Virus record (IMG/VR): IMGVR_UViG_3300032242_001414
Location: 9,079 to 73,078 of that record
Direction: 5' to 3' (one strand)
From: a virus
Taxonomy: Duplodnaviria; Heunggongvirae; Uroviricota; Caudoviricetes
DNA length: 64,000 bases
This document shows positions 15,836 to 58,531 of the stretch, piece by piece. The number at the start of each line of letters is the position of its first letter. The stretch's first letter is position 1. A program made the position numbers and the translations under genes. Under the pieces are notes generated by a model. That model had not been told where the DNA came from. It saw nothing but the letters and a program-made list of their open reading frames with translations, and did no database searches.

Positions 15836-15889
15836 TATATTATTTTTGGCAAAGGTAAACAGAATAATTGATACTACCAAATATTTTCT

Positions 15890-20792: not shown

Positions 20793-20836
20793 ACACAAAT
20801 ATATGAAATATATTTCACATTGCCAAATCTAAACAG

Positions 20837-33722: not shown

Positions 33723-35276
33723 ATGGCAATTCAAACAATTCCAGGTTTAACTGGTTTTACCTATGCTAGAGTAGCTTCTATGGACAAGCGTGCTGTAGGT
33801 AAATTAACAGATGCAAACCACTTGGAAAGCTTTCACTCTACAGAGCCAGCAGACTATGATAAGAAAATCATTAGCTTGTATACTCAGAGCTCTCTTTACA
33901 GTAATGACTTCTTGGACATGATTAACAAGAGCACTCCTTACTATATCGATAACAACAGTGATGCTTGGAAGTGGCAAGTTCAAGTTCCATACAAATTCCC
34001 TAAAATCATTGACATCCCTACTACAACTTTAGAGTTATCTAAGCCAGGTATTGATGGTCAAGAGTTCCAATTGATTATTGACACAAACGAATTCTCTAAG
34101 AATGCTATCGTTTCTGTTGGTACTCGTCAATATGGTCCTCGTTTCTATGTTGTGAAAGATCCTCAACCATGGAACGTTGGTTATTTGTATACTTTCACAT
34201 TAGTTACAGACAATCCAGTTGTAGACTTCGTAAGCCCAGTATTCTTAAGAATTGGTATCGAATTAGAATTGGTTGATGCTGCTATTGGTGAATTTGATCA
34301 AGACTTATTAGGTCTTCCTCGTTTAGGTGAGCAAATCACAATGTTTGAATCTTTAGGTTCTGCATATGGTTATGAGCACAAGATCACTGAGTGGGCTGAT
34401 GATAAGATGATGAGAGATGCTTCTGGTAAACCTTTAGATATTTTGGTATATGCTCCTCAAAGACGTAACCAATTACCTTTAACTCGTAATGATGTTAAAT
34501 GGGAACCATTTATTGAGTTCTGGATGCGTAAGTCTATGTTAGAATTAAAAGTTAAGCGTATGATCTGGGCTAAGCCTGGTACCGTGAAGACTAATGGTTC
34601 TAAGCAAGAATTAAAGAGAACTTCTGCTGGTGTATACCACAGAATGCGTAATAACGGTAACTTAGTACAATACAACCGTGGTGAGTTCACTGCAAACTTG
34701 ATTCGTTCAGTGTTTGGTGACTTGTTCTACAGACGTGTTGATGTTAAGGATCGTAGAGTTAAAATGTACACTAATGAAGCTGGTTTTGACGTGTTCCAAC
34801 AAGCTTTAAAGAATGATGCATTAAATTCAGGTTTAACTTTCATGGCTGATTCTGGTAATCGTTATTTACAAGGAGAAGGTCAACATATCACTTACAACTT
34901 TGCATTCGATGCAATGGTAACTCGTGAGACTGGTCGTGTTGAACTTATTCACTTGAAAGAGTTAGACTTACCTCAAACTAACTTAGAATTTGGACAAAAC
35001 AAGAAATCAACTCCAGTATTTATGGTGTTTGATGTATCTCCAATGTCTGATGGTTCTATGGTTAACAATATCCGTGAAGTACGTATGAAGGGTGCACCTT
35101 CTATGACTTGGGGTTATATCGATGGTACTCGTCACCACTTAGGTTTTGCTAAGTCTCAAGGTATGAGTTCTGCGAACAAATTCCCTGGATATGAAATCTG
35201 GATGAAAGATCGTTGTGATGTATTCATCGAGGATTTATCTCGTACAGTATTGATTGAAGAAATTCCTCAATTCTAA
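33723..35276 (+). CDS. major capsid protein (517 aa)
   Basis: Follows the scaffold-like gene; codon usage differs from neighbours (Arg as CGT, Gly as GGT, frequent GTT/GCT/TTC), indicating high expression; followed by two strong hairpins. Confidence 0.65.
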   Translation: MAIQTIPGLTGFTYARVASMDKRAVGKLTDANHLESFHSTEPADYDKKIISLYTQSSLYSNDFLDMINKSTPYYIDNNSDAWKWQVQVPYKFPKIIDIPTTTLELSKPGIDGQEFQLIIDTNEFSKNAIVSVGTRQYGPRFYVVKDPQPWNVGYLYTFTLVTDNPVVDFVSPVFLRIGIELELVDAAIGEFDQDLLGLPRLGEQITMFESLGSAYGYEHKITEWADDKMMRDASGKPLDILVYAPQRRNQLPLTRNDVKWEPFIEFWMRKSMLELKVKRMIWAKPGTVKTNGSKQELKRTSAGVYHRMRNNGNLVQYNRGEFTANLIRSVFGDLFYRRVDVKDRRVKMYTNEAGFDVFQQALKNDALNSGLTFMADSGNRYLQGEGQHITYNFAFDAMVTRETGRVELIHLKELDLPQTNLEFGQNKKSTPVFMVFDVSPMSDGSMVNNIREVRMKGAPSMTWGYIDGTRHHLGFAKSQGMSSANKFPGYEIWMKDRCDVFIEDLSRTVLIEEIPQF

Positions 35277-41555: not shown

Positions 41556-42806
41556 ATGTCTGAAAACCAAAGTCTATTAGACCAACTTCAACAAATGCTA
41601 CACTGGAAGAAATCAAAGAAATACTATGCTGAAAAGCTAGGAATTACAGAAGCAGAAGTTGATGAACTTCTAGCAGATATTAGAAACAAAGAGGTGACAG
41701 AAATTGAAGCAGAACTTGGAAATTACATAGCAGACTTGGAAGATACAATTGTTAGATTTACAGAAGATATAGTTAAGGGTACAGGAGAGGTGGTAGCTAA
41801 CTTATCTGAGGAAGTAAAGAGTTTAGAAGATCTTATTGAGAAGTGTAAGATAGATACAGATAAATGGGAGATAACTAAATATGTACAGAACTACTGGGGA
41901 AATGCAGAACAACCTCACTGGCAAGTAAAAGCTTGGTTAGGAAAGAAGTCTACAGAGCAAGTATTTCAAGATGCATTTGTAGACTTTTTAGCTTCATATA
42001 AGCCTGTAAGTCAAGATGTTATAAGTCCTAAGTTTGTAGAAGGTAAGAGTAATGCTATGTTGGTTATCAACAAGCAAGACTCCCACTTAAACAAATATGA
42101 TATAGATGGTAATAATGATATTTCTTTTAGATTGGGTAATATCATTTACAAAGTGGAAACTATTGTTAACCAAGCAAAGCTTTCTAACAACTTAGAGAAC
42201 ATCACCTATATTATTGGTTCTGATGAGTTTAATAGTGAATACTCTGGTATGACTACTAAAGGAACTCCTCAGACAAACACTCACACATACCATGATTCAT
42301 TTAAGTTCATATGTGAGCATGAGATATTAGTAATTACAATGTTATTACAGCATGCAGAAAATGTAAATGTGGTGTATGTAGCTGGTAATCATGATGAGTT
42401 TGCTGGATGGCATATGATCACTTGGTTGCAAGCTTATTTCAGAAACATTGATAGATTACAATTTGATTGCTCTCCTAAGTATAGAAAATACATAAGTTAT
42501 GGAACTTCAGCATTAATGTTTAATCACGGAGATGCTATTAAGCCTGCTAAGTTAGCAGCATTATTCCCAATGGAATTTAAAGATGGTTGGTCTTTTCATA
42601 GCAACTTCTATATATTCACAGGAGATAAACATCATGAAGTGAGTCATGATTTCAATGGTATTAAATTTTACCAAATTCCAGCATTCTCAAATGCAAAGAG
42701 TCTTTGGGATGATAAGAATGGTCATGTGATGTCTAAAGCTGAAGTGACTGGATTCTTAATAGAGCAAGGCTCAGGAATGACAAATATATTCAAACAGTAT
42801 TTATAA
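41556..42806 (+). CDS. calcineurin-like metallophosphoesterase domain protein
   Basis: Track start is TTG (41499); first ATG 41556 (MSENQ...). Motifs DSH, IIGSDEF (GD), VAGNHDEF (GNHD/E), FNHGDAI, FTGDKHHEVSHD (GHxH-like) in phosphoesterase order. Confidence 0.55.
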   Translation: MSENQSLLDQLQQMLHWKKSKKYYAEKLGITEAEVDELLADIRNKEVTEIEAELGNYIADLEDTIVRFTEDIVKGTGEVVANLSEEVKSLEDLIEKCKIDTDKWEITKYVQNYWGNAEQPHWQVKAWLGKKSTEQVFQDAFVDFLASYKPVSQDVISPKFVEGKSNAMLVINKQDSHLNKYDIDGNNDISFRLGNIIYKVETIVNQAKLSNNLENITYIIGSDEFNSEYSGMTTKGTPQTNTHTYHDSFKFICEHEILVITMLLQHAENVNVVYVAGNHDEFAGWHMITWLQAYFRNIDRLQFDCSPKYRKYISYGTSALMFNHGDAIKPAKLAALFPMEFKDGWSFHSNFYIFTGDKHHEVSHDFNGIKFYQIPAFSNAKSLWDDKNGHVMSKAEVTGFLIEQGSGMTNIFKQYL

Positions 42807-43525
42807 TGGCAACATTAAGAAAAATGGTCTCAGATATTCGTGGTATGAATAAACTCATATCCACGGATAACCTTATTACAGACAGAGTAATAGCTGCTGA
42901 GATCAGAGTTAACACACAATTATTAATCAAGCGTGAGGCAAACCTCAGAAAGCTTTGGGCTACAGACACTGTATTCACCACTATTCCTTGCTTAGAACTT
43001 ATTGAAGTTCCTATCTCTGAATGCTGTGGATATACAGATCCTTGTCAAGTGGCAAGAACTAAATTTAAATTACCTCGTATATCTGAAGGTAATTACCAAT
43101 ACCTTATTCAAGGGGTATGGTCTATTAATGCAATGGGTGGACAAGGAACTAAATTTAAAGAAGTTACAATCAATAGATATTTGAATCTATTACAGCTTCC
43201 TATCATTAAGAATCAAACTTACTATTGGATAGCTAATGAATATCTATATGTAAGCAATCCAATGTTAAAAGCAGTGAGAATTGCTGCTTTCTTTGAGGAA
43301 GATGTACCAAATGATTTAATGTATCCAGAATGTGGATGTGGACCAGTACCAGTAGTTCTTGATGAAGACTATTGTAAGAACCCATTAGATAAAGAATATG
43401 CTTGTCCTGGTTATTTAGAACAACAGGTATTAGCAATGACAACACAAAAATTACTACAGACATACTTTAGAATTAATGATGATAAGACAGCAGATGCTAA
43501 AGATGACCAAGTAACTAAAGTGTAA
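42806..43525 (+). CDS. hypothetical structural-module protein (239 aa)
   Basis: ORF track. Confidence 0.5.
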   Translation: MATLRKMVSDIRGMNKLISTDNLITDRVIAAEIRVNTQLLIKREANLRKLWATDTVFTTIPCLELIEVPISECCGYTDPCQVARTKFKLPRISEGNYQYLIQGVWSINAMGGQGTKFKEVTINRYLNLLQLPIIKNQTYYWIANEYLYVSNPMLKAVRIAAFFEEDVPNDLMYPECGCGPVPVVLDEDYCKNPLDKEYACPGYLEQQVLAMTTQKLLQTYFRINDDKTADAKDDQVTKV

Positions 43526-44009: not shown

Positions 44010-44987
44010 ATGTCATATTATTACAAGTACAACTTTGTTTCTCCTCAACCAGTTTATGCAACTGTTAAAGAAGAACTAAAAAGTTATTTTGATACAGGTG
44101 CAGTAGATGATCTATTGTTCCCTACTTACTTAGACAAATGTTTAAAGAAGTTAGGTAGAGCAACTTATGTCATCTCTGAACAAATTTTGCATATAAATGA
44201 TTTTGAGGCTAGACTTCCAGATAATTTCTATGCTGTAAGAGAGGCTTGGATGTGTACAGAAATACCATCTAACTATCCTATTCAAACAGCTAATTCATTC
44301 TATTCTCAAGCATCTAGTCAAACAACAATACAAGTGAGTCCTCTTACTAGAGGTACAGGACCTTGTGTTAATCCTGTATGTAATGATACTAATTGCTCAG
44401 GACAATGTATGCCTGAGATTATACAAGCTGTATATAAGACTAATCAATCAGTAGCTAGAGCTTATAGAAATGAATACTTGCTTAAACCAGGTAACATTTC
44501 TGTAAGAAAGAACTGTGATGTAGAATATACTAATGCTTGGGAGTTCTACACTCCACCACCTCCAATTCATGAATTCACTCCTGGTTCTGCTAGTTATGAT
44601 TCATTTGATATTAGAGATAACAAATTTGTTACCAACTTTAGAGAAGGAACAGTTCATTTGATATTCTATGCTACAGAATATGATCAGATTGGAAATCAAA
44701 TGATTCCTGATAACTTTCGTATTAGAGAGTATGTAGAACACTTTATTAAATATAAGGTGTTTGAAATGTTATCTAATCAGCTAACTGATGAAACTTTCCA
44801 ACAAATACAAGCAAAGCTAGCTTATTACAAACAGCTATCTGAAGAAGCCTTTATTATGGCTGATATTGAAATCAAGAAGCAAGATCCTTGGACTAAACAA
44901 AGAAGGATTAAGAATGACTTGAATAGATTTAATATGTACGAATTACCTAATAGATCTTACAACGCATATGGTTGGGGAAGAAACTAA
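44010..44987 (+). CDS. hypothetical structural-module protein (325 aa)
   Basis: ORF track. Confidence 0.5.
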   Translation: MSYYYKYNFVSPQPVYATVKEELKSYFDTGAVDDLLFPTYLDKCLKKLGRATYVISEQILHINDFEARLPDNFYAVREAWMCTEIPSNYPIQTANSFYSQASSQTTIQVSPLTRGTGPCVNPVCNDTNCSGQCMPEIIQAVYKTNQSVARAYRNEYLLKPGNISVRKNCDVEYTNAWEFYTPPPPIHEFTPGSASYDSFDIRDNKFVTNFREGTVHLIFYATEYDQIGNQMIPDNFRIREYVEHFIKYKVFEMLSNQLTDETFQQIQAKLAYYKQLSEEAFIMADIEIKKQDPWTKQRRIKNDLNRFNMYELPNRSYNAYGWGRN

Positions 44988-44996: not shown

Positions 44997-47900
44997 ATGG
45001 CTGAAGAACAACAACAAGGACAACAAGAACAAGGGAATGTTAGGCAAGAATACAATCTTGGTAGAGTTGGCTTAAACATGGACTCAACTGTTAATCAGAT
45101 TGAGAAAGGTAAGTTAACTTATGCTTTGAATGCTAACTTGGAAAACTTTGATGCTAATTCTGTTAACTATCAGAATGAGCAAGGGAATGTTCATTGCTTA
45201 GATTTTCCTAGTGGTTATCAGCTTATTGGACAACACTTCATTCAAGAAAAAAATAAACATATATTCTTTTTAGCCAATCCTTTAACTGGAGGTTCTGAGA
45301 TAGGGTATATGGATAATAATGATTGTATATATCATACACTATCTACAACTTATCCTGATTTAGGAATTACAGTGAAGGCTAATTCTCCTTGTCTTAATTT
45401 TAGCATTAATCATCCTATTCATAAGTCTGTACATAAGATTACTAACTGCACCACTGAGGTGTATTGGACAGATGGAGTTAATCCTAGAAGATATATAGAT
45501 ATTGAGAATGTTCCATACATTTCAACTATTGGTTCTAATGTTTGTAATGTAATAGCTATTCCTGAACTTGATTGTAATAAATTAAAAATACAACCTAATT
45601 TCAGTATTCCAGAATTAACAATCAATAGTATTGTTAATGAAGGAGAGTTAGTAGCTGGTACATACCAGTTTGCTATTCAGTATTGTAGTGCTCTTGGAGA
45701 TGCATACACATCTTACTACTCAGTAACTAATCCTGTTTCTATTGCTAATCCACAACTCACTACAAATAATTTTAACTATCCTGTAGGTAGATCTATTATA
45801 TTAGATATTAGCAATATAGATATTACAGGTTATTTTGAATATTATAACGTAGCTGTTATTAAAACTATCAATGGTGCTTCCACTGTGCAATTAGTGGGTA
45901 CATATTTCATTGATAAACAAACAAACCAAATAACTTATACAGGTCAAAATAAAACAGAGATATCTCTTTCCACTACAGATATATTCATAAAATATCCTTA
46001 TTATGATATTGCTCAGGATGTAACTAGTGTACAGGATATATTAGTTTGGGATAATTTAACTTCTATAGATAGAGTGAGTTATCAAAAGATTGCTAATCAG
46101 ATTGACTTATTATGGGAAACATATAGAATTCCTTCTAATGAAAACTATGCAGATGGTGTAAATACTGCAAATCTAAGAGGTTATCTTAGAGATGAGGTGT
46201 ATGCATTTGAAATAGTATTCTTATTAAAGAATGGTAAACAAACAGATGGTTTTCATATTCCTGGTAGAACTGCTACAATAGATGATTTAGTGGTGGTTGA
46301 TAAAGTTTCAAATGCTGATTATATTGGAACTGGAACTGAAGCTCCTTATTGGAAGATATATAATACAGCATCTGTAATTGCAAATGCTACAGGACCTAAA
46401 ATTGGAAATGCTACACCATATCAATATGGTCAGTTTGCATATTGGGAATCTACAGAGAAATACCCTTGTAATCCAAATGTTTGGGGAAACCTTGCTGATC
46501 AACCAATCAGACATCATAAGTTCCCAGATGTTCTTGTAAGTCCTATTTTTGAAAGTGGAGCATATACAGTTAGTCCTGATTTTAAACCAGTGATGCAGCA
46601 AAATGCAATCTATCCAATTGGTGTTAAAGTTAGCACAGAACAAATTATTGATTTAATTAACACTTCTGATTTAACTGATAATCAGAAAAATGAGATAGCT
46701 GGATATAAGATTGTTAGAGGAGATAGAGCTACAAACAGTTCTATTGTAGCTAAAGGTATGTTAAGAAATGTTGGTAGATATACAAGAGAAAATCCAAACA
46801 ATGCTAACTCTACGTATTACTATTATGCTAACTATCCATATAATGACTTTAATCCAGATCCTTTCTTATTAGAAAGAAACAATGCTTACAATTCTCAATG
46901 TAAAACTTATAAGATAGAGGCAGGACCTAATGCTGGAACAATCACTTACACTGACTGTTTTACAAATGAACCATCTTCAAGAAGTTTTACAACTTATGAA
47001 GTGTGGAATCAATGTTCTTTAACTGATCCTCAAGTAACAGCAGGAAGTCCAACTATTACAAATCTAACTGCCACAGCTTATTTATTAAGTTGTTTACAGG
47101 TTAATGGGCATACACAATTTCAATATACAGATCCTTCTACATTATCTCCTATTTCAATTAACGTTTATTACGGTAACCCACAAACTGTAAATTCTACAAC
47201 AACTCCTGTAAGAATAAGTGGTTCAGATAAATATGTTGTACAGTTAAATAATAACTATGTAAATACATATTGTGAACCACAACCACTAAATGGATTTCCA
47301 TACACTGATGCACCTGCTAGATATGTATTCAATTCTCCAGAAACTTCTTTTGGACAACCTGTGTTAGGTAACATAATCAAAATGGAGAATGCTATATTTG
47401 GTGCAGGTAGAGCTCATTTTGTAAAGGTTAAAAACAATGCTCAATATAAACTATTAAGTGAACAAGTTCAAGTGGATGCTTTGAATTCAAGTTATAACAT
47501 TGCTAAGATTACAGGAACACTTGATGCAACAGCAATGTTTACAGCTTTCCAAGCATATCTACAACTTTATATAAATGGTATCAATAGAAGAAACTATGCA
47601 TATTCATTTAACTCTATAGCTCAATATGACTATGGAGTTCCTATTGATAATGGTTTAGGAGTTAAACAAAGAGAACTTAGCATCTGTCAATATCTTATTC
47701 CTGGTGTACAATCAGTAGGAGATAATAACAATGTTAACAATTTCCAAAGAGAATCTTCTGTTTATTTGAAGATGTCAAATGAAATTTATGCTCTACCAAG
47801 AGTGGATGACACACCAAATCTTCTTGTAAGTAATGAACGTACAATCACTGATAATTCAAGATTTACAATCTCTCAAAGAGGAAACTGTGCCACTCCAGAA

Positions 47901-49955
47901 ATGCAAGAGGATATTAAGGTGCTATCTTACTATGGATCTATAAAGAACATCTTTGTAAATCAATGGGGACAGATGTATTCTTATCAAACAATTGATACAG
48001 GATTCCAAAGAATATTCAGCACTTACTCAAGTGCTCAACCAGATGTAGCATTTGGTGGAGATACATTCATTGGTAAGTTTGCTTATAAAACAAAACTTCC
48101 TTTCTTTATTGATAATAGAGTGAATGCTCAAGATGATAGTGATGTTTATTATGATGAGATAGGTAATGTAGCCTATCCAAAATATTGGCATTCTTCTAGA
48201 TCAATATTGAGTAACTACATGGCTGGTACAACATTAATGAAGAATATTATATCAGTTAAAGCTCACAACTTTGATTGTCCTAATAATCCAGATATACCAT
48301 CAAGCACTACTAGTAGCACTACAACCTTCCCTGAAGGAGCAGTAACTGTAAGTACAACTAACGCATATTATGATGGTAAGTTCTATTTATTTGCATATGG
48401 TATTCCTTACTTCTATTGTGAATCTTCTATTAATGTAGACTTACGTCAAGCATTTAATAATTTAGAAGGTGATTTCTACCCACACGTGAGCACAGGTATT
48501 CCAGATAACTGGTTACAACAAACTAATGTTCCTATTGCTTTTGATAATACGTACACTTATAATGTAACTTATTCTAGACAAAATACAGAGAATACATTCT
48601 CTCATTTGCCTATAGATTGGTCACCTCAATTATGTTATACAAACTATCCATTTAGAGCTATCTATTCTGAGCAACAATCATCTAATCCTAGCAATAAGGT
48701 GAATAGCTGGTTAAACTATGCTCCTGTAGCATACTTTGATTTCCCTCAGAACTATGGTAAGTTGGTATCTTTAGATGGTATTCAGAATAAAGCCATCATA
48801 GCTAGATTTGAGAATAAGAGCTTCTTATATAATACAATGCTTACGGTTAGAACTAGTAACCCTCAAGCTGCTTATTTAGGTAATGATTCATTATTTAGAA
48901 GTGCCCCTCCAATTGATTTTGCTGAAACAAATCTTGGATACATGGGAACTCAACATAAGTTCTTATTAAAGATTCCTCAAGGACAAGTTTCTATTGATGC
49001 TAAGAGAGGTCAGATATTCTTAATCTCTTTGAACATGTATGGTAGATATGTTCCTAATGATATGACTGCTTTTAGTTCTGGTGTAAATAGGTTTATAACA
49101 GACCATTTACCATTTGAGATTTTAAAATACTATCCTAATGCTAACATAGATAACCACTTCAATGGTATTGGTATACATGGTGTATATGATAGTAAGTATG
49201 ATAGAGTGATTATTAGTAAGTTAGACTACATTCCTCAAATTGAATATAGAGGAGTTATTCTATATGATGAAGCTCTTGACAAGTATTATATAAACAAGCA
49301 TTATGGAACAACAGTTCTTAGACAATATGTAAATCTTACAGACACTCAGTATTTCTGTAACAAGTCTTGGACCTTATCTTTTGATATGAATACTAGCAGT
49401 TGGGTGAGCTTCCATAGCTACATTCCTAACTTCTACATAGCTGAAAATAACTTCTTCTATTCTGGGTTGAATGGAGGTTGTGATTTAGAAGCAATTGCTC
49501 TTCAAGAAATCACCACTACAACTACAACTAGTACATCAACAACAGCAGCACCATGTTGTAACTTAAGTGGTACAGCAGTGTTTGTTCCTGGAGTGTGTGA
49601 AACTGATGGTACAGCAATATCTGTAGGTCCTTGTGATTTAGATGGTAAAGCAAATGCTTCAATAACCACAACAACCACCACCACTACATTACCTCCTCTT
49701 GATTTTAGTACATCTTATGGTTGTGATTTTGGTAATATTACTGTTAACTCAACAAGTACATCAGGTGGAGTTCCTCCTTATTTTTATGGAACAACATATT
49801 TTTTATCAGAATCAGAAGCTTTAGCAAATGAAAGTTGGGTAGAAGCTAGTTCAATTGGTTATGGTGTAGGTGTTACTAATGGTACATATTGGATAGTAGC
49901 AAAAGATAGTGTTAACACTTTAAAAGCTAAAAGTGTAACAACAGGGTGTTTTTAA
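44997..49955 (+). CDS. giant structural protein (1652 aa) with Thr-rich linkers and C-terminal SprB-like repeat; putative tail/adhesin
   Basis: Uninterrupted 4.96 kb ORF; linkers SSTTSSTTTF, EITTTTTTSTSTTAAPCC, ASITTTTTTTTLPPL; C-terminal YGCDFGNITVNSTSTSGGVPPYFYGTTYF fits the SprB repeat pattern (C.G...i.v...GG.PPY.Y). Confidence 0.65.
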   Translation: MAEEQQQGQQEQGNVRQEYNLGRVGLNMDSTVNQIEKGKLTYALNANLENFDANSVNYQNEQGNVHCLDFPSGYQLIGQHFIQEKNKHIFFLANPLTGGSEIGYMDNNDCIYHTLSTTYPDLGITVKANSPCLNFSINHPIHKSVHKITNCTTEVYWTDGVNPRRYIDIENVPYISTIGSNVCNVIAIPELDCNKLKIQPNFSIPELTINSIVNEGELVAGTYQFAIQYCSALGDAYTSYYSVTNPVSIANPQLTTNNFNYPVGRSIILDISNIDITGYFEYYNVAVIKTINGASTVQLVGTYFIDKQTNQITYTGQNKTEISLSTTDIFIKYPYYDIAQDVTSVQDILVWDNLTSIDRVSYQKIANQIDLLWETYRIPSNENYADGVNTANLRGYLRDEVYAFEIVFLLKNGKQTDGFHIPGRTATIDDLVVVDKVSNADYIGTGTEAPYWKIYNTASVIANATGPKIGNATPYQYGQFAYWESTEKYPCNPNVWGNLADQPIRHHKFPDVLVSPIFESGAYTVSPDFKPVMQQNAIYPIGVKVSTEQIIDLINTSDLTDNQKNEIAGYKIVRGDRATNSSIVAKGMLRNVGRYTRENPNNANSTYYYYANYPYNDFNPDPFLLERNNAYNSQCKTYKIEAGPNAGTITYTDCFTNEPSSRSFTTYEVWNQCSLTDPQVTAGSPTITNLTATAYLLSCLQVNGHTQFQYTDPSTLSPISINVYYGNPQTVNSTTTPVRISGSDKYVVQLNNNYVNTYCEPQPLNGFPYTDAPARYVFNSPETSFGQPVLGNIIKMENAIFGAGRAHFVKVKNNAQYKLLSEQVQVDALNSSYNIAKITGTLDATAMFTAFQAYLQLYINGINRRNYAYSFNSIAQYDYGVPIDNGLGVKQRELSICQYLIPGVQSVGDNNNVNNFQRESSVYLKMSNEIYALPRVDDTPNLLVSNERTITDNSRFTISQRGNCATPEMQEDIKVLSYYGSIKNIFVNQWGQMYSYQTIDTGFQRIFSTYSSAQPDVAFGGDTFIGKFAYKTKLPFFIDNRVNAQDDSDVYYDEIGNVAYPKYWHSSRSILSNYMAGTTLMKNIISVKAHNFDCPNNPDIPSSTTSSTTTFPEGAVTVSTTNAYYDGKFYLFAYGIPYFYCESSINVDLRQAFNNLEGDFYPHVSTGIPDNWLQQTNVPIAFDNTYTYNVTYSRQNTENTFSHLPIDWSPQLCYTNYPFRAIYSEQQSSNPSNKVNSWLNYAPVAYFDFPQNYGKLVSLDGIQNKAIIARFENKSFLYNTMLTVRTSNPQAAYLGNDSLFRSAPPIDFAETNLGYMGTQHKFLLKIPQGQVSIDAKRGQIFLISLNMYGRYVPNDMTAFSSGVNRFITDHLPFEILKYYPNANIDNHFNGIGIHGVYDSKYDRVIISKLDYIPQIEYRGVILYDEALDKYYINKHYGTTVLRQYVNLTDTQYFCNKSWTLSFDMNTSSWVSFHSYIPNFYIAENNFFYSGLNGGCDLEAIALQEITTTTTTSTSTTAAPCCNLSGTAVFVPGVCETDGTAISVGPCDLDGKANASITTTTTTTTLPPLDFSTSYGCDFGNITVNSTSTSGGVPPYFYGTTYFLSESEALANESWVEASSIGYGVGVTNGTYWIVAKDSVNTLKAKSVTTGCF

Positions 49956-49970: not shown

Positions 49971-50834
49971 ATGGCAAAAACAATAATCATAAAATTAATA
50001 AAGGCTGGAAGCAGAACAGGACCATTTGACATCATTGATCAATATGGAGAAACATTAGTTACAGGAGTAACTAAGCAACAGCTTATTGATGGATATGCAT
50101 TAAATGTAGATAATAGTTCTACCATGGTTATATTACAATCCACTGGTAGATGTCATACATTAGTAGAATTACACATTACTCAGGCTACAGAAGCAGAGAT
50201 AGCTGCCATAATTTATACACCTTATAATACAGGTAGTATATGGACACATTTGAAAGACATAACTGTTTATAATAAGTATTACGATAATATAGAACCATTT
50301 ATACTAGAATACCCATTTGCTTACCTATCTTATGATGAAATCCTTCAGAATGTTAAGGATTATACAAGAGCAATCAAGTATCTACCTAGTACCACTGGAT
50401 CATATAATGATAATGCAGCTATAGAAGTGAATGGTTATTTTAATAAAGCTATTTTATATAATGGTCAACAATGTTCAGGATTATTGTTGTTAGTTCCAAA
50501 ACCTTTACGTAACTTGCAACAATATTTGACCTATCCTATATATAATGCAGATAGTAAGACTATCACTTATGCTAAGTCTGATGGCTTCTATCAATACAAC
50601 ACTTTCTGGGGATTAGTTAAAGATAAAACTGTACCTTTGTTTAATACTACTTGTGAGTCATTATCCATAGATAAAGTTCTAAATCAAGCTAATATGGATT
50701 ATGGAAAAAGATCATATAAGAAAGAACCTCTAAGAGCTAAATTCTTAAAGGTTAGACACATACTGGATGACAAATCTGATTTACATTTAGTTAGTGGATT
50801 TATTGTTACACCTGCTGAAATATCTTACAAGTAA
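49971..50834 (+). CDS. tail fiber-like protein (287 aa), N-terminal domain paralogous to 40732..41379
   Basis: AGSRTGPFDIIDQYGETLVTGVTKQQLIDGYALNV...ILQSTGRCHTLVELHIT aligns with the 40732 product N-terminus. Confidence 0.5.
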   Translation: MAKTIIIKLIKAGSRTGPFDIIDQYGETLVTGVTKQQLIDGYALNVDNSSTMVILQSTGRCHTLVELHITQATEAEIAAIIYTPYNTGSIWTHLKDITVYNKYYDNIEPFILEYPFAYLSYDEILQNVKDYTRAIKYLPSTTGSYNDNAAIEVNGYFNKAILYNGQQCSGLLLLVPKPLRNLQQYLTYPIYNADSKTITYAKSDGFYQYNTFWGLVKDKTVPLFNTTCESLSIDKVLNQANMDYGKRSYKKEPLRAKFLKVRHILDDKSDLHLVSGFIVTPAEISYK

Positions 50835-53800
50835 TGGCAAAAAGTTTAACACCAAAAAAAGCTAGAGAAATATTACATGACAAATCTGTTCATGGACATC
50901 CTCTTACAGACAAGCAAAGAAGATTCTTTGGTGCTATGTCTAATATGGAATCTGGTGGATGGTTAGATAAATATGCAGATGGTGGAAACATAGTTGGTCC
51001 TAAAGCTGCTCCAATAAGAATTAATGGAACAGAAGTGTTTGAACATGGTGAAGATACAGCAACAGCAGACAAAGAAGAGAATGGAGTGAATCCAACTAAT
51101 TTAACTAAGAAAGGAGTTAAGTATGCAGAGAGTGTAGGACAAGAAGCATTAAAAAGAGGAAAGAAAGCTGTTATCACTAGTGATGTACAAAGAGCAAAAG
51201 AAACAGCAGATGTTATTGGACAAACAGCAGACTTGCCTGTATACAACAATCCTATATTAAGAACATGGGATATTGGTGAATATGATGGAGCTCCTGAAGG
51301 AAGCTTTAAAGAAAAGCAATGGGCTAGTAAATCTAGCACTCCTGTTCCTGGTGGAGAATCATTTGATAGCTTCAAAGCTAGAATGGAGAAAGCTTTTGAG
51401 TTTGCAGAAACTGCTCCTAAAGATGCTGATATTGTAACACATAGTAAAGTGACTAGAGCATTTAAAGCTCTTCATGACACAGATGGTAAATGGACTGATA
51501 AAACTACTAAGAAGTTTTTAAATATTAAAAATGAGGCTAAAGCTAAAGAAGGAGTTTTATTACAGAAGAAACAAGATAATTATGGTAAACAGGCTAACTA
51601 CAATGATAATCAAACATCTGTAGGTCCTGGATTTGTAGGTATGGGTAACAATCTTAAAGGTAGAGACTATTCTCCTGCATGGGGTGGACAGTTTCAGAAT
51701 GGTGGAGGTATACCTACTGATAAAAGAAGTCAAGAGTTTTATAATACATTAAAAGATTATTACACTGCTCCTGATAGAACTGAAGCAGAAAAAGCAAGCT
51801 ATGCTGCTTTCCAAAGACTTAATGAAGCTCATGGATATGCTCCAGTAGCTGTAAAAGAACGTACAATTGCAGGAAAACGCTCAATGATAAATCCATTTAC
51901 TGGAAGACTTAACTTAGTTGCAGAAACTGATCCTAATGTTGGAGAAATTGAATCTACTCCTCAAAAGTTAATGGAGCAGTATATGAATGAATATAGTCAT
52001 TATCAACAATATAATGAACATCCTGAAGAATCAAGATTAGAAAAAACAGGTAGATTCTTGGGTCATATGGCTACAGACTTTGGTCAAATGCTTAAAAATA
52101 CTAAAGGTCTTAACTTTGGAAAAGCATATGATAAGAACTATTTCACTCCTGGTACAACAGAATATGAAGCACATCAAGTGATTCAACCTAAATTACAAAA
52201 TGAGTGGGCAAACTACTATGGTCAAGAGTGGACAAAGAATAGAAATAAATTACAAATGGGTGGAAGTATGCCAGGTGCTGTAGGATTCACATACGCACGT
52301 ACAGCTGGAGCTGCTCCTGCTAATGGTAAGTATGCTAAGAAAACTAAAGCAAGTGCTCAGAATGGTAAGGAAATGAGTTTCTATCAACAAGGATTAGATT
52401 TCACTCCTAAGACTATAAGTAAGAATGGTTCTGTGATTAAAGATGATATGGGTCAATGGGCACACCCAGGTGAGGTTACAGAGATTAATTCTAACAACAT
52501 CACAATGGAAGGTGTAGACTATCCTGTACTTGGTGTATCTGATACAGGAGATACAAAGCTTATGCAACCTGACCAGAACTATAAGTTCAAGGGTAAGAAG
52601 GTTACAGAATACCCAATGGCTCAAACTGGTATTACAATGGGAGTTGAGTCTGGAACATATCAACCCACTTCTAAAGTTGCTACAAAAGAAGAGATTAAAG
52701 CAGCTAAGATGCAGGCAATGAGAGATAGGCAAGGGTATATAAAAACTGCAGAACCAGAAGAATCTACATTATCTAGAGCTTGGAATATTGCTACTCATCC
52801 AATGACAGCTTTATCATATAAAATACATGGTAGAGATATTCCTGAACACTTTGAAAGAGGTGAACAGAATATACTAGAACATGCTACTAATATTGTTAAT
52901 CCATTTGGTTATATTGATGCAGCTGCTTCTATTCCTGGTAATCTAGCTAAAGGAGAATTTATTAATGCTGGATTAAATGCAGCTACAATACTTCCTTTAT
53001 TATCAGAAGCAAGAGGTTTACCAAGAACAAATCTTAGTTCAGTTCAACCTATAGAGGGAGTTGTTAGTAAAGCAGGAATTCCTGATCCAACAGGTTTTGT
53101 AGATGCCATGTTTCCAAAATTAGATCCTTTAAAATTACTTGGGGGTCAATCAGATATTATGGAATTTAGTCCATTAAATTATCTTCCTGGATATGGAAAT
53201 AAACTAGGTGGAAACAGACAAGCATTTAGAAAGTTTGGAAACTCTATACAAGATGTTATAGAAAGAAAAGCATTAAGCCCTAAAGGTGGATCTAAATTTA
53301 GACTTGGAAGAGATCAAATAACTAATGAGGGAAACTGGGCTGCTATGGGTGAACCAGCTGAAAATTATCAAGGTGTATTTGAAGCTACATTTGATTTGAA
53401 TCATCCTGAATCAAATCTTTCAGCACAACATATCCCTAATAGAAATGGTGTGTTAATGATGGATAAATATGGAAGACCAATTGTTGATATACCATTATCA
53501 GAACCATCAATGTCATTTAATAGAAGACTTCCTTTCTCTACAAGATATGTACCTATTGATAAACAAAAGTTAATAAACAATCAATTTCAACTTGCAACAT
53601 TTGCTCCTCATACACAAAGTCTTGTTGAAAAATATGGATTAGGATTAGGAGTTGCAAATTTAATGGGAAAGGGTGCTGTAGATACATATAATAAATATAC
53701 TATAGATCCTATTATTAATATAAGTAATAAAATAGAATCAGATTCTACTAAGAAAAAAAGTGGGGGATGGTTAGATAAGTATAAAGCTCAGGATGGTACA

Positions 53801-55273
53801 GAAATTCCAGAAGGAATGACTTTACCTACAGTTACTGTTACTTCTAGTAAACCTTCTGTATGGGGACATATGAAGTTTGCTCCATATGATCCTAGTAAAG
53901 CTGAAACTACTATATCACAATGGAATCCTAAACCTGGTGAAAGAGAAGCATTAGCTGCTGCAGAACAAGCTAGAAAAGATGAAGCAAATAGTTGGTATAA
54001 TAATAAACATATCAAAGCTTTTCGTAATAGTGCTTTTATGGACCCTACGGCTTTAGGCACAGCAACTGCTGCTGCATTACTTGGTCCAGAAATTATTGCT
54101 GCTGCTCCATATATAGCACCAGCATTGGAAACTCCTATAGCAGGTGTTGCAGGATTAACAGGAACTAATATTCTTGGTGCAGCTGCTGCTTATCAAGGAC
54201 TTGAAAATCTTCCTAATACAGCACAATCTGTAAAGACAGCTTATCAAAATCCTACTTGGAATAATATAGCAACTGCTACATCAGATGTTGCTTGGAATGC
54301 TCTTGATTTAGCTCCTGTTGTATCTACTGTAGCTAAAGAAACAAAACCATTCTTAGGTTCTAAAGTATCATTTAATAATTCTTTACAATCAGTAGAAAAT
54401 TCAGAACTACCAAAATTATCAATAGCAGAAGGTAATGTTTTAAAAAATGAATTACCACTTAACAATCAAATATCTAGATCTGAACTTAATGCGATGATTA
54501 AAAGAGAAAGTGATTGGTTAAATAGTGATGAATACTTAAGAAGAAGAATGGCTAACACAGGAGAAACTGAAGCACAAGTAAAAGCAGCAGTTGATAAGTA
54601 TCATGACAAAATTAAAAAAACTGAAATTGTTGTAGGAGATACAAAAGATCCAGCAACTTATGGATATTATAATCTTGGTAAAACTGAAAATCCAAAAATA
54701 GTAATAGGTGAGCATTTAACTAGAGATGAGGCATTAGCTACAGCTGACCATGAAATTAAACATGCAATGGGGCAAAGTTCTGGATTTTATGAAAAGTCTG
54801 ATATTGCTGCTAAGTATAAAAACTATCCAACAATTAAAGTGGGAAATTGGTTTCAAAGAAATGTACCAGGTCTTGGTAAAGTAGCAGATCATATGGTATA
54901 TTTAAACAAAGGAGAGGAACAACAAGTTAGAGCATTAAAATTATTAGATCTTATAGAAGAATCGGAAGGAATTCCTAGAGGAACTCAATTAACTCAAAAA
55001 GACCTTACATCTTTTGTAAATAAACATAAACCTGGAACAGAAGCTGGTGAAAATTTTATTAAGATTCATGGTGATGTAAATGATTTAATACAAAATGTTG
55101 CTAAAAAATATGGCAAAGATGTTAAAAATACACCACGTAAAAGACTATTAGATTTTCTAAATAAAGCTTATGTTTTACCTGGAGCAGCTGTAGTAGGTGG
55201 GGCAGGATTAATAAATAATGAATCATCTAATGATAAACAAAAAAACGGTGGCTGGTTAGATAAATATAAATAA
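50834..55273 (+). CDS. giant virion-module protein (1479 aa) with three GGWLDKY motifs and an HExxH motif
   Basis: ESGGWLDKYADGG (res ~40), KSGGWLDKYKAQDG (~980), KNGGWLDKYK at the exact C-terminus; TADHEIKHAMGQ (HExxH) near res ~1290. Confidence 0.65.
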   Translation: MAKSLTPKKAREILHDKSVHGHPLTDKQRRFFGAMSNMESGGWLDKYADGGNIVGPKAAPIRINGTEVFEHGEDTATADKEENGVNPTNLTKKGVKYAESVGQEALKRGKKAVITSDVQRAKETADVIGQTADLPVYNNPILRTWDIGEYDGAPEGSFKEKQWASKSSTPVPGGESFDSFKARMEKAFEFAETAPKDADIVTHSKVTRAFKALHDTDGKWTDKTTKKFLNIKNEAKAKEGVLLQKKQDNYGKQANYNDNQTSVGPGFVGMGNNLKGRDYSPAWGGQFQNGGGIPTDKRSQEFYNTLKDYYTAPDRTEAEKASYAAFQRLNEAHGYAPVAVKERTIAGKRSMINPFTGRLNLVAETDPNVGEIESTPQKLMEQYMNEYSHYQQYNEHPEESRLEKTGRFLGHMATDFGQMLKNTKGLNFGKAYDKNYFTPGTTEYEAHQVIQPKLQNEWANYYGQEWTKNRNKLQMGGSMPGAVGFTYARTAGAAPANGKYAKKTKASAQNGKEMSFYQQGLDFTPKTISKNGSVIKDDMGQWAHPGEVTEINSNNITMEGVDYPVLGVSDTGDTKLMQPDQNYKFKGKKVTEYPMAQTGITMGVESGTYQPTSKVATKEEIKAAKMQAMRDRQGYIKTAEPEESTLSRAWNIATHPMTALSYKIHGRDIPEHFERGEQNILEHATNIVNPFGYIDAAASIPGNLAKGEFINAGLNAATILPLLSEARGLPRTNLSSVQPIEGVVSKAGIPDPTGFVDAMFPKLDPLKLLGGQSDIMEFSPLNYLPGYGNKLGGNRQAFRKFGNSIQDVIERKALSPKGGSKFRLGRDQITNEGNWAAMGEPAENYQGVFEATFDLNHPESNLSAQHIPNRNGVLMMDKYGRPIVDIPLSEPSMSFNRRLPFSTRYVPIDKQKLINNQFQLATFAPHTQSLVEKYGLGLGVANLMGKGAVDTYNKYTIDPIINISNKIESDSTKKKSGGWLDKYKAQDGTEIPEGMTLPTVTVTSSKPSVWGHMKFAPYDPSKAETTISQWNPKPGEREALAAAEQARKDEANSWYNNKHIKAFRNSAFMDPTALGTATAAALLGPEIIAAAPYIAPALETPIAGVAGLTGTNILGAAAAYQGLENLPNTAQSVKTAYQNPTWNNIATATSDVAWNALDLAPVVSTVAKETKPFLGSKVSFNNSLQSVENSELPKLSIAEGNVLKNELPLNNQISRSELNAMIKRESDWLNSDEYLRRRMANTGETEAQVKAAVDKYHDKIKKTEIVVGDTKDPATYGYYNLGKTENPKIVIGEHLTRDEALATADHEIKHAMGQSSGFYEKSDIAAKYKNYPTIKVGNWFQRNVPGLGKVADHMVYLNKGEEQQVRALKLLDLIEESEGIPRGTQLTQKDLTSFVNKHKPGTEAGENFIKIHGDVNDLIQNVAKKYGKDVKNTPRKRLLDFLNKAYVLPGAAVVGGAGLINNESSNDKQKNGGWLDKYK

Positions 55274-55291: not shown

Positions 55292-58200
55292 ATGAAAGAT
55301 CAAATCTTAAAGATCGCTAAAGTAAAGTCTGAAAAGGAATTCTATAAGAAATATCCATCAGAAGAAGCATTTATGAAAGCTCATGGTAAAGCATTTAAGA
55401 AAGCTGCTATGGGAGCTAAAATGGTGAATACACAGTTACATCAATTAACTGACTTTGGTAATCCTCCTCAAGCACAAGTGGGTGCATACATTGGTGGTAA
55501 AGCAGACCATCCTTTTAATCCTATATCATTCAATGATTTGTTAACTAATACAAAAGCAGTGAATGCTGGTCTTACTAAAGAGGAACTTGAAAAACAAGAA
55601 ACTTTAAATAGACTTGATGGTACTAAAGGTGGACCTACTTATAAAGGAGTGAGTAGTGATCTTTCTGGTATCATTGATGTATTAGGATCTAAATCAGCTT
55701 CTACTACTAAAAATGTACCAAGTGCTGCAAATAATTATGCAGGATTGGGAGTGGATGATGATATACCAGTTCAAAAAAATGGTGGTCGTAAGTTAAAGAA
55801 AGGACAAAATGGATTAGATACTTTTGGTATTGGTAAAATGTTAGGAACTGCTTTCCAAAATCAAGGAGGTCTTGGTACTGGACTTGCTAATATAATTAAA
55901 CCAGGATTAGGTACTAACATTATGAATGTTGGTGCTGAAGGTGCATTAGGTGCACAAGGTGCTGGTGCAATGGCTGGTGCTGAGGCTGCTGGTCTTGGTA
56001 TAGTGAATGCTGTTCCACAAATATTACAAGGGGCTGGACAAATTGAACAACAACATGCTAATATTGCTAAAGCAAATCAATTTTCAAAGATTAGTAATTT
56101 AACAGCTTCTGCTCTTGAATCTGCACCAGATAGAGCTAAACGTAGATATGTTAGACCTGAAGATGCATTAGTACAACCTGGACAATTAGGTTCTCCTCAA
56201 GGAGTTGGTACAAACTATTTATCTGCTCAGAACGGTAGATCAATTGGTGGTAATCCAACTGAGATACAAAATACATATGCTCCTGGTAATCTATATGGAG
56301 ATCTTGGATATGAGCCTTTAAATGATAGCAATCCTAAACAATATGCTTATGGTGGTAATATTCCTACAGCAGAGTTTGGAGAATACTTCCAAGATTCTGG
56401 TCAAGCTTCTATAGGTAAAGGAATTGGATCTGCAGTGGGTACAGCATTCTTTGGACCTGTTGGTGGTGCTGTTGGTGGATTCTTAGGTGGTGTAGCTGGT
56501 AACTTATTTGGTGGTGTAGATGATGCTAGAAAGCTACAACATTATCAAGATCTTGGTAGAATAAATACACAAAGAGCTGCATGGGCACAGGGAGCAAATG
56601 CTATACATGCACAGAATGCGAATGTAATGAAAGATGGTGGATATACAGATGATGATCATGGATGGGTTAGCAATGGTTGGAATCCTCAAGTGATTACTCA
56701 CTTTGGTGATTTAAATGTATCTCAAGTGCACAACTTTGCACATCAAGGAATGGATACATTAAGAGCTGGTGGACATTTAAAAGAATACACACCTCCTAGT
56801 GCAGAAGCTATGTACACAGGAAGAGATCAATATGCTATGGGTGGAGATTTACAAACTCATTGGGGAGGTAAAGCTGAAACCCTATCTCACAATCCTTATT
56901 TACCAGATGGTGGAGAAACTGTAATGTTTAGAGGACAATCTCATGATGAAACAGATGGTAAAGGAAGAAGTGGTATAGGTGTTACCTATGGTGATAATCC
57001 TGTAGAAGTGGAAAGAGGTGAACCAGCTGTTAAGTTACAAGATGGTGGTAATGCAGGTGATGATAACTTAGTGGTATTTGGTAACATGATGATTCCTAAT
57101 TATGGTGTATCAGAAATTGGAGATAAAAAAGCTAGTGGTAAGAAGTTTAAAAACTATGTTGCTGACTTAAGTAAGAAAGAAGCAAAACACAATAAAACTA
57201 TTGAAAAGGCTACAGATATAGTAAACAATGCAAATGGTACTGATCCATTTGATCAACTATCTCTTAACGCTGGTAAAGCAATGATTATGGGAGCAAATCT
57301 TAAATTAAAAGATATAGCTGATAAGAAACAAAAAGCAGCTATGGTACAGAATGCTATTCTTGATACAGCAGCAGAGTTTGGTGTAGAAAGTGATGGTTTA
57401 GCTAAAGGTAAGTTAAGACCTATTAAAGACCCTTCTATTGGTAAAGATGGTAAGAAGTTAAAGAAAGCTCAAGTAGGTTGGCATCCAGAATGGAATGATG
57501 CTCAAGGAACAACAACACCACCTTATCAGGGTATACCTATGTTAACTGCTATTAATGCAGATCCTTCATTTGAAGTACCTCGTCTTGGAATAGGACAACC
57601 AAGAACAACTATTCCTTATGATCCAATGTATCCAGGAGAGATTATAAAAGCTGATCAGCCTAAATTACCTAGTGCACCAACAAGTATTGATCCTGCTGTT
57701 TTAAATAGAAGTTTAGCTGCTTTGAAAAAATTAAAACCTACTAAAGATAAAGGTAAAGGATTTGGTTGGGAAGATGCTACACAATCATTATTAAGTGCAT
57801 ATCCATTCTTTAGACCTACAAATCAATTACCTCTTGATCCTAGTCAGTTAATGGGTGAAATGTATGCATTGGGTAGCAATCAGTTAGAAGGAGTGAAAGC
57901 TCAGACATACCAACCAATGTTAGATCAACCTTATGATATATCTTTACAAGACCAATTGAATTCTATTGATTCTCAGGCTAGAGCTGCTATTTTAGCTGCT
58001 GGTCAAGATCCTTCTGCTCAGTCAGTTATTATGGCTCAAGCTGCTGATGCTAAGAATAAAGTGTTAGGAGAACAATTTAGAGCTAATCAAGTTAATAAGG
58101 CTGCTGTATATCAAGCTAATAGACAAGCTATTAATCAAGCTCAATTACAAAATTTGGGAATCCTTGATAATCAATATGTTAGACAAGAAACAGCTAAGTC

Positions 58201-58531
58201 TAAAACTAAAGCTGAGACATTTGCTGCTCTTGAATCTATTAGTGATAAGATTGCTAAGAACAAGCTTGAGAACAGAACATTAGGTATTACAGAGAATATG
58301 TACAACTACAGATTTGATCCTCAAGGTAGAGCTTATAACATTAACAATCCTGCTCAGTTTGCTATTCCTTCAGTAGGAATATCAGATCCTGACTTAACAG
58401 ATAATGGTGCACCTGCTGGAACAGTTCCAGTGATTGGTGCTAATGGACAAGTTACAGCATATAAGGTAATTAAGCCAACTACTACTAAAAAAAGAAACGG
58501 ATCTATTGTTAAAGCTATAAAAAATCTATAA
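55292..58531 (+). CDS. giant virion-module protein (1079 aa) with Gly/Ala-rich segment
   Basis: GLGTGLANIIKPGLGTNIMNVGAEGALGAQGAGAMAGAEAAGLGIVNAV hydrophobic Gly/Ala-rich stretch; recurring xGG motifs (QKNGGRKLKKG, AYGGNIPT, AMGGDLQTHWGG, LQDGGNAGDD). Confidence 0.6.
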   Translation: MKDQILKIAKVKSEKEFYKKYPSEEAFMKAHGKAFKKAAMGAKMVNTQLHQLTDFGNPPQAQVGAYIGGKADHPFNPISFNDLLTNTKAVNAGLTKEELEKQETLNRLDGTKGGPTYKGVSSDLSGIIDVLGSKSASTTKNVPSAANNYAGLGVDDDIPVQKNGGRKLKKGQNGLDTFGIGKMLGTAFQNQGGLGTGLANIIKPGLGTNIMNVGAEGALGAQGAGAMAGAEAAGLGIVNAVPQILQGAGQIEQQHANIAKANQFSKISNLTASALESAPDRAKRRYVRPEDALVQPGQLGSPQGVGTNYLSAQNGRSIGGNPTEIQNTYAPGNLYGDLGYEPLNDSNPKQYAYGGNIPTAEFGEYFQDSGQASIGKGIGSAVGTAFFGPVGGAVGGFLGGVAGNLFGGVDDARKLQHYQDLGRINTQRAAWAQGANAIHAQNANVMKDGGYTDDDHGWVSNGWNPQVITHFGDLNVSQVHNFAHQGMDTLRAGGHLKEYTPPSAEAMYTGRDQYAMGGDLQTHWGGKAETLSHNPYLPDGGETVMFRGQSHDETDGKGRSGIGVTYGDNPVEVERGEPAVKLQDGGNAGDDNLVVFGNMMIPNYGVSEIGDKKASGKKFKNYVADLSKKEAKHNKTIEKATDIVNNANGTDPFDQLSLNAGKAMIMGANLKLKDIADKKQKAAMVQNAILDTAAEFGVESDGLAKGKLRPIKDPSIGKDGKKLKKAQVGWHPEWNDAQGTTTPPYQGIPMLTAINADPSFEVPRLGIGQPRTTIPYDPMYPGEIIKADQPKLPSAPTSIDPAVLNRSLAALKKLKPTKDKGKGFGWEDATQSLLSAYPFFRPTNQLPLDPSQLMGEMYALGSNQLEGVKAQTYQPMLDQPYDISLQDQLNSIDSQARAAILAAGQDPSAQSVIMAQAADAKNKVLGEQFRANQVNKAAVYQANRQAINQAQLQNLGILDNQYVRQETAKSKTKAETFAALESISDKIAKNKLENRTLGITENMYNYRFDPQGRAYNINNPAQFAIPSVGISDPDLTDNGAPAGTVPVIGANGQVTAYKVIKPTTTKKRNGSIVKAIKNL

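Follow-up and report, generated by a model that had tools for sequence, protein, structure and literature searches.

A repeated GGWLDKY peptide, a proposed address label for virion loading, marks the ends and module junctions of a crassvirus cargo-slot protein

The genes that follow the muzzle gene of the crassvirus crAss001 encode the cargo proteins C1 and C2 and the subunits of the virion RNA polymerase, and all of these are kept in the capsid and the tail and enter the host by ejection (PMC10172136). Phages and conjugative elements also encode polyvalent proteins, which were described by Iyer, Burroughs, Anand, de Souza and Aravind in 2017 (PMC5512222). It is not yet understood how crassviruses choose, keep and eject their large protein cargo; some bound peptide densities, among them a six-fold helix of 14 residues on the muzzle, were left without assignment in the 2023 atlas of crAss001 (PMC10172136), and according to a 2026 paper on N4 the structures of crassvirus ejection proteins are still to be resolved (PMC13434306). 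Here, we analysed a stretch of 64,000 nucleotides from an uncultivated crassvirus (crAss-like phage), i.e. positions 9,079 to 73,078 of IMG/VR record IMGVR_UViG_3300032242_001414 (the 64-kb window; positions are counted from its first letter). In its cargo (ejected) protein slot, this window encodes a protein of 1479 amino acids (aa) that contains the heptapeptide GGWLDKY three times. We refer to this peptide and its variants as the tag.

With at least two unrelated effector or enzymatic domains (His_Phos_1 and a zincin) and a content that varies between relatives, the 1479-aa protein is a polyvalent protein. As in described polyvalent proteins, unrelated effector domains are strung together in one phage polypeptide, delivery together with the DNA is predicted, and zincin-like peptidase modules are frequent. 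Unlike these proteins, the tagged family has no MuF or other described packaging domain, and its carrier consists of two new segments, core A and core B; moreover, a repeated tag at termini and junctions with variants between lineages is not described in that work (PMC5512222). The protein also resembles C1 (gp45) and C2 (gp46) of crAss001 and gp081 of phage phi14:2 in that its gene directly follows the muzzle and in that it is long, punctuated by Gly-Gly and partly disordered; in gp081, a zincin is fused to a portal-binding cargo domain and the protein is present in virions. By contrast, the cargo proteins of crAss001 and phi14:2 have neither the WLDKY tag nor the core A/B carrier, and no homology of the tagged protein to crAss_CARG1 or gp46 was detected using Pfam, phmmer, hhalign and Foldseek. 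Gluzincin metallopeptidases, including those of the ImmA/IrrE (M78) type, are also among the closest known systems.

The capsid-targeting sequence of T4 internal proteins is found only at the N terminus and is removed by the prohead protease, while the cargo-loading peptides of encapsulin cargo are usually single and C-terminal. Purely by analogy, the tag resembles both as a short terminal peptide that is portable between cargos and that is proposed, or in those systems known, to bring unrelated proteins into an HK97-fold shell; it differs from both because it is present at both ends and at junctions. In polymorphic toxins, which are secreted bacterial toxins, the demarcation motifs VENN in CdiA and DPxGL in Rhs are likewise short conserved peptides that separate a constant region from a swappable module; however, each of these motifs occurs a single time and away from the extreme termini, whereas the tag is terminal and present in several copies. 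Polyvalent proteins, cargo proteins of crassviruses and peptides that target proteins to the capsid are known kinds; the new elements are the tagged carrier, its spread over no fewer than 324 viral contigs in IMG/VR, and the parallel tags that other lineages carry. GGWLDKY, GWLDKY, GGWLNKY and WLDKY had no match in the literature searched, and no description of the tag was found in the searched literature on crAss, polyvalent proteins, virions and metallopeptidases.

Searching 5.8 billion proteins with the 1479-aa protein, we obtained 766 matches with precomputed Pfam content, and the extent to which each part of the protein is shared was derived from the best 119 of them. Together with AlphaFold2 (AF2) predictions, this gave the following layout:

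50834-55273, plus strand: polyvalent (multi-module) cargo-slot protein of 1479 aa (open reading frame (ORF); 766 homologues with varying Pfam content; synteny)
50834-50944, plus strand: optional N-terminal leader, aa 1-37, with KAReILHDKsVHGhPLTDKQRRFFGA; common to about 17 of 119 homologues
50954-50974, plus strand: tag copy 1, aa 41-47, followed by ADGG
51044-51463, plus strand: histidine-phosphatase (His_Phos_1) payload module, aa 71-210 (Pfam E 1.2e-19)
51539-51571, plus strand: decayed tag site, KAKEG-VLLQKK (aa ~238), where relatives have KENGGWLNKYEQGG-LVLKQK (comparison with P0002 and L075)
51545-51733, plus strand: core A, aa 238-300, conserved Gly/Asn/Tyr-rich segment; common to about 92-96 of 119 homologues
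52241-52627, plus strand: core B, aa 470-598; common to 111-118 of 119 homologues
52430-52624, plus strand: six-strand beta domain of 65 residues within core B, aa 533-597 (AF2)
52613-52651, plus strand: second decayed tag site, EYPMAQTGITMG (aa ~598), where 71 of 170 relatives have EYPMxxGGWLxKY
53762-53782, plus strand: tag copy 2, aa 977-983, followed by KAQDG
53783-54349, plus strand: segment behind tag copy 2; common to about 25 homologues (hydropathy maximum 1.45)
54401-55174, plus strand: predicted gluzincin-like metallopeptidase payload module, aa 1190-1447, with HEIKH at 54749-54763 and the invariant EQQ at 54917-54925
55247-55273, plus strand: tag copy 3, GGWLDKY-K-stop, aa 1472-1479 (motif at 55247-55267); 162 of 174 family members end in this way

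The initial annotation had reported a near-identical heptapeptide in three places, the last at the very C terminus, together with an HExxH motif, and the ORF bears this out: GGWLDKY is present exactly three times (residues 41-47, 977-983 and 1472-1478), the third copy is followed only by Lys and the stop codon, and HEIKH is located at residues 1306-1310. Every copy is preceded by Ser or Asn, and the tag-bearing peptides include MANWLDKYEQGG and KNGGWLDKYK. Among 20000 shuffled versions of the protein, only 82 contained any 7-mer even twice; because one 7-mer occurs three times here, chance is excluded. At the DNA level, the three copies vary synonymously (GGT/GGG, GGA/GGC and AAA/AAG). Copy 2 (..GGWLDKYK-AQDG..) looks like a former C terminus with a module fused behind it. 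A relaxed six-frame search of the 64-kb window identified no further true tag copies. No convincing transmembrane segment was found (hydropathy maximum of 1.45 over 19 residues).

Only core A (aa ~238-300) and core B (aa ~470-600) are common to nearly all of the best 119 matches; the remainder of the query is common to 9-35 of them. The Pfam modules that change between relatives are His_Phos_1, ADPrib_exo_Tox, ART-PolyVal (PF18760), SET, SLT, Amidase_2, Glucosaminidase, YkuD and PG_binding. By scanning IMG/VR with the core-B alignment, we identified at least 324 loci on contigs of the usual crassvirus size. Family members range from 193 to 2042 aa, and the minimal members of 193-240 aa (L010, L068, L033 and L040; the 193-aa protein is at L010:9824-10405) consist only of an N-terminal tag, core A, core B and a C-terminal tag. 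These minimal members start with M-A-x-W-L-D-K-Y-x-x-G-G, so that the tag occupies residues 4-8, or carry the tag behind a short leader, and they end with ...G-G-W-L-x-K-Y-[KNQ]-stop. This tag-core-tag organization supports that the 1479-aa protein is a small carrier with payload modules added ahead of, within and behind the core. In two of the minimal members (L033:9752-10474 and L040:9782-10501), a Cys4 zinc-ribbon-like leader (CTCGHSWNKSDSS..VCHICGKDN) precedes the first tag in place of the KARxILHDKxVHGxPLTDKQRRFFGA leader; other family members begin straight with M-x-x-WLDKY.

The most conserved stretch of the whole family is located in core B at 52241-52429 (aa 470-532; MGGSxPGAVGFTYART..NGKYAKKTKASAQNGKEMxFYQxGLDF). 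This stretch is disordered in the AF2 prediction when folded alone, and the beta domain is the sole part of core B that folds (predicted local distance difference test score (pLDDT) 74-86). That aa 470-532 are strongly conserved and yet predicted to be disordered in isolation suggests that this stretch may fold on a partner.

In the payload, the His_Phos_1 module scores above the Pfam cut-off for branch 1 of the histidine phosphatase superfamily and matches CobC-type phosphatases in the PDB. The catalytic RHG is replaced by EHG (51041-51049, aa 70-72), i.e. Arg is changed to Glu and the catalytic His is kept. EHG was present in all 10 of the 10 family members with a phosphatase module that were checked, which argues that it is a conserved variant rather than a sign of decay.

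The initial annotation had staked its proposal on conservation of the motif in homologues, and the motif is indeed conserved: 118 of the 120 best matches carry it, and in 106 of the 120 it forms the exact C terminus. For quantification, we used 174 non-redundant members, a relaxed tag pattern and an expectation obtained by shuffling. The pattern was observed 475 times while 6.3 occurrences were expected. The tag forms the protein end in 162 of the 174 members, its Trp lies within the first 10 residues in 85 members and within the first 60 in 57 more (142 in total), and 79 members have three tags. In 80 loci of ~20 kb searched on both strands, only one ORF per locus carries the tag; accordingly, the large proteins encoded downstream, where the initial annotation had suggested looking for the motif, lack it.

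The copies are not equally constrained. Constraint is strongest on the C-terminal copy, where all 106 instances have Tyr and 103 of them have Lys; by contrast, the non-C-terminal copies have Tyr or Phe (130 and 47 instances, respectively). Gly-Gly is found downstream of the tag, within five residues, in 68 of 86 N-terminal copies and upstream of it in 148 of 162 C-terminal and 193 of 227 internal copies, i.e. Gly-Gly stands on the side that links the tag to the rest of the protein. Moreover, 109 tag instances are encoded by 79 different 21-mers, while the W, the L and the aromatic residue are invariant; this free codon variation supports that selection acts on the peptide and not on the DNA. 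The 9-residue unit G[GWLxKYxxG]G is present or missing between close relatives, and the tag follows the end of core B in only 71 of 170 cases, both of which indicate that the internal copies are dispensable. In one homologue (P0019), the 9-residue unit even interrupts core B, separating its disordered part from its beta domain, and module breakpoints coincide with tags when L051 and L047 are compared.

In other lineages with the same zincin module, different short tails follow Gly-Gly (P0165, P0181, P0182, P0186, P0200, P0212 and P0226). These tails are GGYIVEDV, W[EQ]IIE[DY], GGSINKLKKFIR and ANGKYVFVKT, and several of them are repeated internally or N-terminally: GGYIVEDV occupies internal as well as terminal sites in P0181, P0182, P0186 and P0200, and P0165 has W[EQ]IIE[DY] at residue 4, internally and at its end. 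The occurrence of lineage-specific tails in the same layout points to a partner that co-evolves with the tail within each phage lineage.

The initial annotation had also raised the possibility that the HExxH motif belongs to a metalloprotease that processes the protein itself. The module is real, with a predicted gluzincin-like fold (AF2 pLDDT 89.7; predicted template modelling score 0.88). When aa 1190-1465 were searched against 1.84 billion representatives, 128 clusters were obtained, of which 122 were new; HExxH is kept at the aligned site in 122 of 122 clusters and in all 22 family members that have the module. An alignment of 30 sequences has an invariant H, E and H (H117, E118 and H121 in alignment A3), a Y-P pair and E-Q (EQQV); this E-Q lies 52 residues past the second His on a predicted helix and is a candidate for the third zinc ligand Glu. 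In a Foldseek search of viral models, the top match was a 'structural protein' of the Cellulophaga phages phi4:1 and phi14:2 (E about 1e-5 to 2e-5). Judging from length and HExxH content, the matched phi14:2 protein would be gp081 (L084:15360-17141, minus strand; 593 aa), which is encoded by the first gene past the muzzle and is annotated as a virion protein by tandem mass spectrometry. gp081 contains the crAss_CARG1 portal-binding domain (aa 76-137, E 2.8e-10) and two tandem HExxH modules (HEFTH at 234 and HEFIH at 461), and matches the zincin module profile with hhalign E 1.4e-4, suggesting a remote relationship between its modules and ours. Thus, gp081 shows for a cultured crassvirus that a cargo protein can carry zincin modules, and the module in the window is a predicted gluzincin-like peptidase of a type that appears to be known as crassvirus virion cargo. 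A tblastn match of the zincin module to gp035 of Cellulophaga phage phi4:1 (E about 7) was discarded as noise; gp035 has no HExxH.

The distribution of the module gives no support to autoprocessing at the tags. It is present in only 22 of the 174 tagged family members, and only 32 of the 122 zincin-module clusters have a tag while 90 have none. These observations support that the HExxH module is one payload among many and not the processing enzyme of the family.

The initial annotation had left open whether the motif is a docking motif or a cleavage site. Docking is favoured over cleavage because the tags are terminal even in members that have no accessory module, constraint is strongest on the C-terminal copy, the internal copies are dispensable and the tags stand on Gly-Gly hinges. 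At somewhat short of an even chance, we tentatively favour that the tag serves for docking, cargo loading or retention on a virion component and that the internal copies are left from module accretion; on this reading, the tag, whose layout is shared by hundreds of related phages, would be a previously undescribed address label that loads swappable enzyme modules into the virion. In the mechanism that we propose, a small conserved carrier, made of core A, the conserved disordered segment and the 65-residue beta domain, has accumulated swappable payloads, here a histidine-phosphatase-like domain, three further modules and the gluzincin-like metallopeptidase. The tag, a lineage-specific peptide of 5-7 residues (W-L-x-K-Y/F) on Gly-Gly hinges, marks the N-terminal end and the exact C-terminal end of the carrier and recurs wherever a module has been added. 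A pocket on the portal, the tail barrel, the muzzle or some other cargo protein of the virion would receive the tag, and through this binding the carrier and the fused modules would be packaged and, at a later stage, ejected into the host. Module accretion would have left the internal copies behind, either as former termini or as duplicated anchors, and these copies can decay.

In crAss001 C1 (gp45, L001:1988-4516), GGWL is present twice, at residues 155 and 427 (3 of 20000 shuffles). The second GGWL (427-430) makes up the first residues of the portal-bound domain resolved by cryo-electron microscopy (425-552 in the structure; 424-555 in Pfam), and we regard this as a suggestive link between the tag style and a solved structure. 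A homologue search with C1 gave only sequences that are at least 96% identical, and conservation of this site was assessed in a wider locus scan. A separate observation is that the ordered tail-barrel segment of C1 (214-245) starts four residues past Tyr-Gly-Gly.

Several observations weigh against a docking tag. In the wider locus scan, the C1 site is not a conserved GGWL in homologues, which have GG followed by P/I/V/Y/W and then L/V/F. The core B beta domain has no significant fold match in the PDB (Foldseek of the AF2 model), with nothing below E 0.07 and only weak cupin-like similarity. Homology of core B to the portal-binding domain of C1 was not supported (hhalign probability <1%; Foldseek and Pfam crAss_CARG1 negative). 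No family member was found in 50,697 GenBank phage records by tblastn with the whole protein and with a minimal member of 193 aa; the matches were to unrelated His_Phos proteins, or there were none. Finally, a junctional tag in flexible Gly-rich linkers would have the look of a cleavage site too, and variation between lineages may be expected equally for a protease and its site.

Proteolytic maturation is in our estimate unlikely. Here, a protease of the phage or the host, or the HExxH module in cis, would cut at or near GGWLDKY and free the modules before packaging or after ejection. Processing by zincin-like peptidases has been proposed for polyvalent phage proteins (PMC5512222). The tags lie between modules in Gly-rich linkers, and a well-supported zincin module is present in cis; Gly-Gly-X sites serve the maturation proteases of adenovirus and African swine fever virus. 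However, in members free of accessory modules the tag occupies residues 4-8 and ends one residue short of the stop codon, where a cut would free nothing useful, it is the C-terminal copy that is best conserved, and internal copies are often missing between the same two modules in close relatives. Moreover, no protease is conserved together with the tag, as is evident from the distribution of the zincin, and in the window no protease domain besides the payload zincin was found in ORFs of at least 150 aa, which also counts against cleavage. Quite unlikely in our estimate is a tether that acts after ejection: as a peptide of Trp, Leu and Tyr with Lys and Asp, the tag could bind the membrane interface, peptidoglycan or a host protein and hold the modules at the envelope. 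Its aromatic and charged composition fits this idea, as do the several family payloads that target the cell wall (SLT, Amidase_2, glucosaminidase, YkuD and PG_binding) and the view that crassvirus cargo proteins span the envelope (PMC10172136). Nevertheless, the unrelated tails of the individual lineages (GYIVEDV, WEIIED and GSINKLKKFIR) are more readily explained by a phage partner that co-evolves with them than by a host structure that is conserved, and minimal members have the tag while having no envelope-active module.

That tags would instead pair with each other or with the beta domain, and in this way clasp the ends of carrier and modules together or chain copies head to tail, is very unlikely: odd numbers of tags are common, as in the members with three, and flanking of modules is not obligatory, even though the minimal carrier has tags on both sides, inserted modules are often flanked on both sides and the tag is immediately behind the beta domain in 71 of 170 cases. 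Finally, the conserved 21 bases could be a joint for recombination at the DNA level, i.e. microhomology for module shuffling that encodes a functionless peptide. The module breakpoints at tags and the gain and loss of 9-residue units would suit such a joint, and polymorphic toxins have analogous demarcation motifs. We consider this explanation scarcely credible and largely refuted already by the synonymous variation among the 21-mers, which leaves W, L and the aromatic residue invariant; moreover, recombination does not explain the copies at the very ends of the proteins, and the layout is retained in other lineages with a different peptide.

Returning to docking as the preferred function, a wider proposal is that portable lineage-specific tags (WLDKY, GYIVEDV, WEIIED/WQIIEY and other tails) form a general cargo-loading code in a large group of crAss-like phages; this is possible, and we regard it as more doubtful than not. 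If it were true, any module beside a tag on the carrier would be packaged and injected into the host, which would account for how very rapidly payload enzymes are replaced and offer a handle for engineering protein delivery by crassviruses. The carrier would let phages swap injected enzymes, among them a phosphatase, an ADP-ribosyltransferase, cell-wall hydrolases, a SET methyltransferase and a zincin protease. As a loading signal, the tag would set rules for what these abundant phages inject and could serve to load foreign proteins; as a cleavage site, it would represent a new maturation specificity. It is a concrete and testable sequence feature on a hypervariable cargo protein.

The assignment of the window to the Crassvirales is based on crassvirus-type capsid, portal, ring and muzzle proteins that are encoded together in one structural module (Pfam: Crass_capsid, E 5e-26; P22_portal, E 9e-14; CrAss_Ring_2, E 2.5e-18; CrAss_Ring_1, E 6e-10; crAss_MUZ, E 5e-28). 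The crassvirus type, together with a low G+C content of about 33%, points to hosts among the Bacteroidota, possibly Flavobacteriia. The genes of this module that are relevant here are:

29160-31742: P22-type portal (Pfam)
33723-35276: crassvirus major capsid protein (Pfam)
42806-43525: tail ring protein 2 (Pfam)
44010-44987: tail ring protein 1 (Pfam)
44997-49955, plus strand: muzzle gene, 1652 aa, crAss_MUZ (Pfam PF25731, E 5e-28; phrog_37948 and phrog_15100)
49971-50834, plus strand: 287-aa ORF between the muzzle gene and the tagged gene (phrog_15100 match)
55292-58531, plus strand: 1079-aa protein with a Gly-zipper hydrophobic segment, downstream of the tagged gene (synteny)

The 287-aa ORF matches only the C-terminal end of the muzzle-type phrog_15100 (positions 1586-1781 of 1783), and therefore the muzzle appears to be split into genes of 1652 aa and 287 aa. 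Its stop codon and the ATG of the tagged gene overlap by one base, and homologue contigs have an ORF of ~288 aa at the same position. On these contigs the gene order is conserved as Ring2, Ring1, muzzle, ~288 aa, tagged family, ~1100-1200 aa, ~900 aa and a giant protein. The tagged gene is located after the muzzle and before giant RNA-polymerase-type genes, in the same order as in crAss001 and phi14:2, and thus occupies the cargo protein slot of crassviruses.

The 1079-aa protein is an analogue of C1 by position only, and the same applies to an 895-aa ORF. Neither was supported as a homologue of crAss001 gp45/gp46 or phi14:2 gp079-081, BLASTP and phmmer giving nothing significant. The crAss_CARG1 (PF25725) profile, which detects gp45 (E 2e-66) and phi14:2 gp081 (E 2.8e-10), had no match at E up to 10 in the 1479-aa, 1079-aa and 895-aa proteins. 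The 1079-aa protein ends (58496-58531) with RNGSIVKAIKNL-stop, which resembles the GGSINKLKKFIR-stop tails of zincin-bearing proteins of other lineages; C-terminal tails may thus be important in several families of cargo proteins. In a homologue of 1058 aa (P0106), core B is joined directly to a downstream protein of the 1079-aa type (...EYPILENTNFTNYNN-MAKAKQGKK...); the WLxKY tag and the stop are gone, and the protein ends with the downstream protein's own tail, RNGSIVKALKNI.

Elsewhere in the window, a protein with an SPFH/Band_7 domain (Pfam E 2e-14) is encoded at 31745-32272 directly behind the portal gene. The minus-strand half of the window contains the replication genes, and in this module homing-endonuclease-like ORFs are present on the minus strand at 15206-15880 and 20214-20798 (NUMOD4 with HNH_3; GIY-YIG fused to HTH_3). 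Between the two gene modules, at ~24-25 kb, both the coding strand and the GC skew switch.

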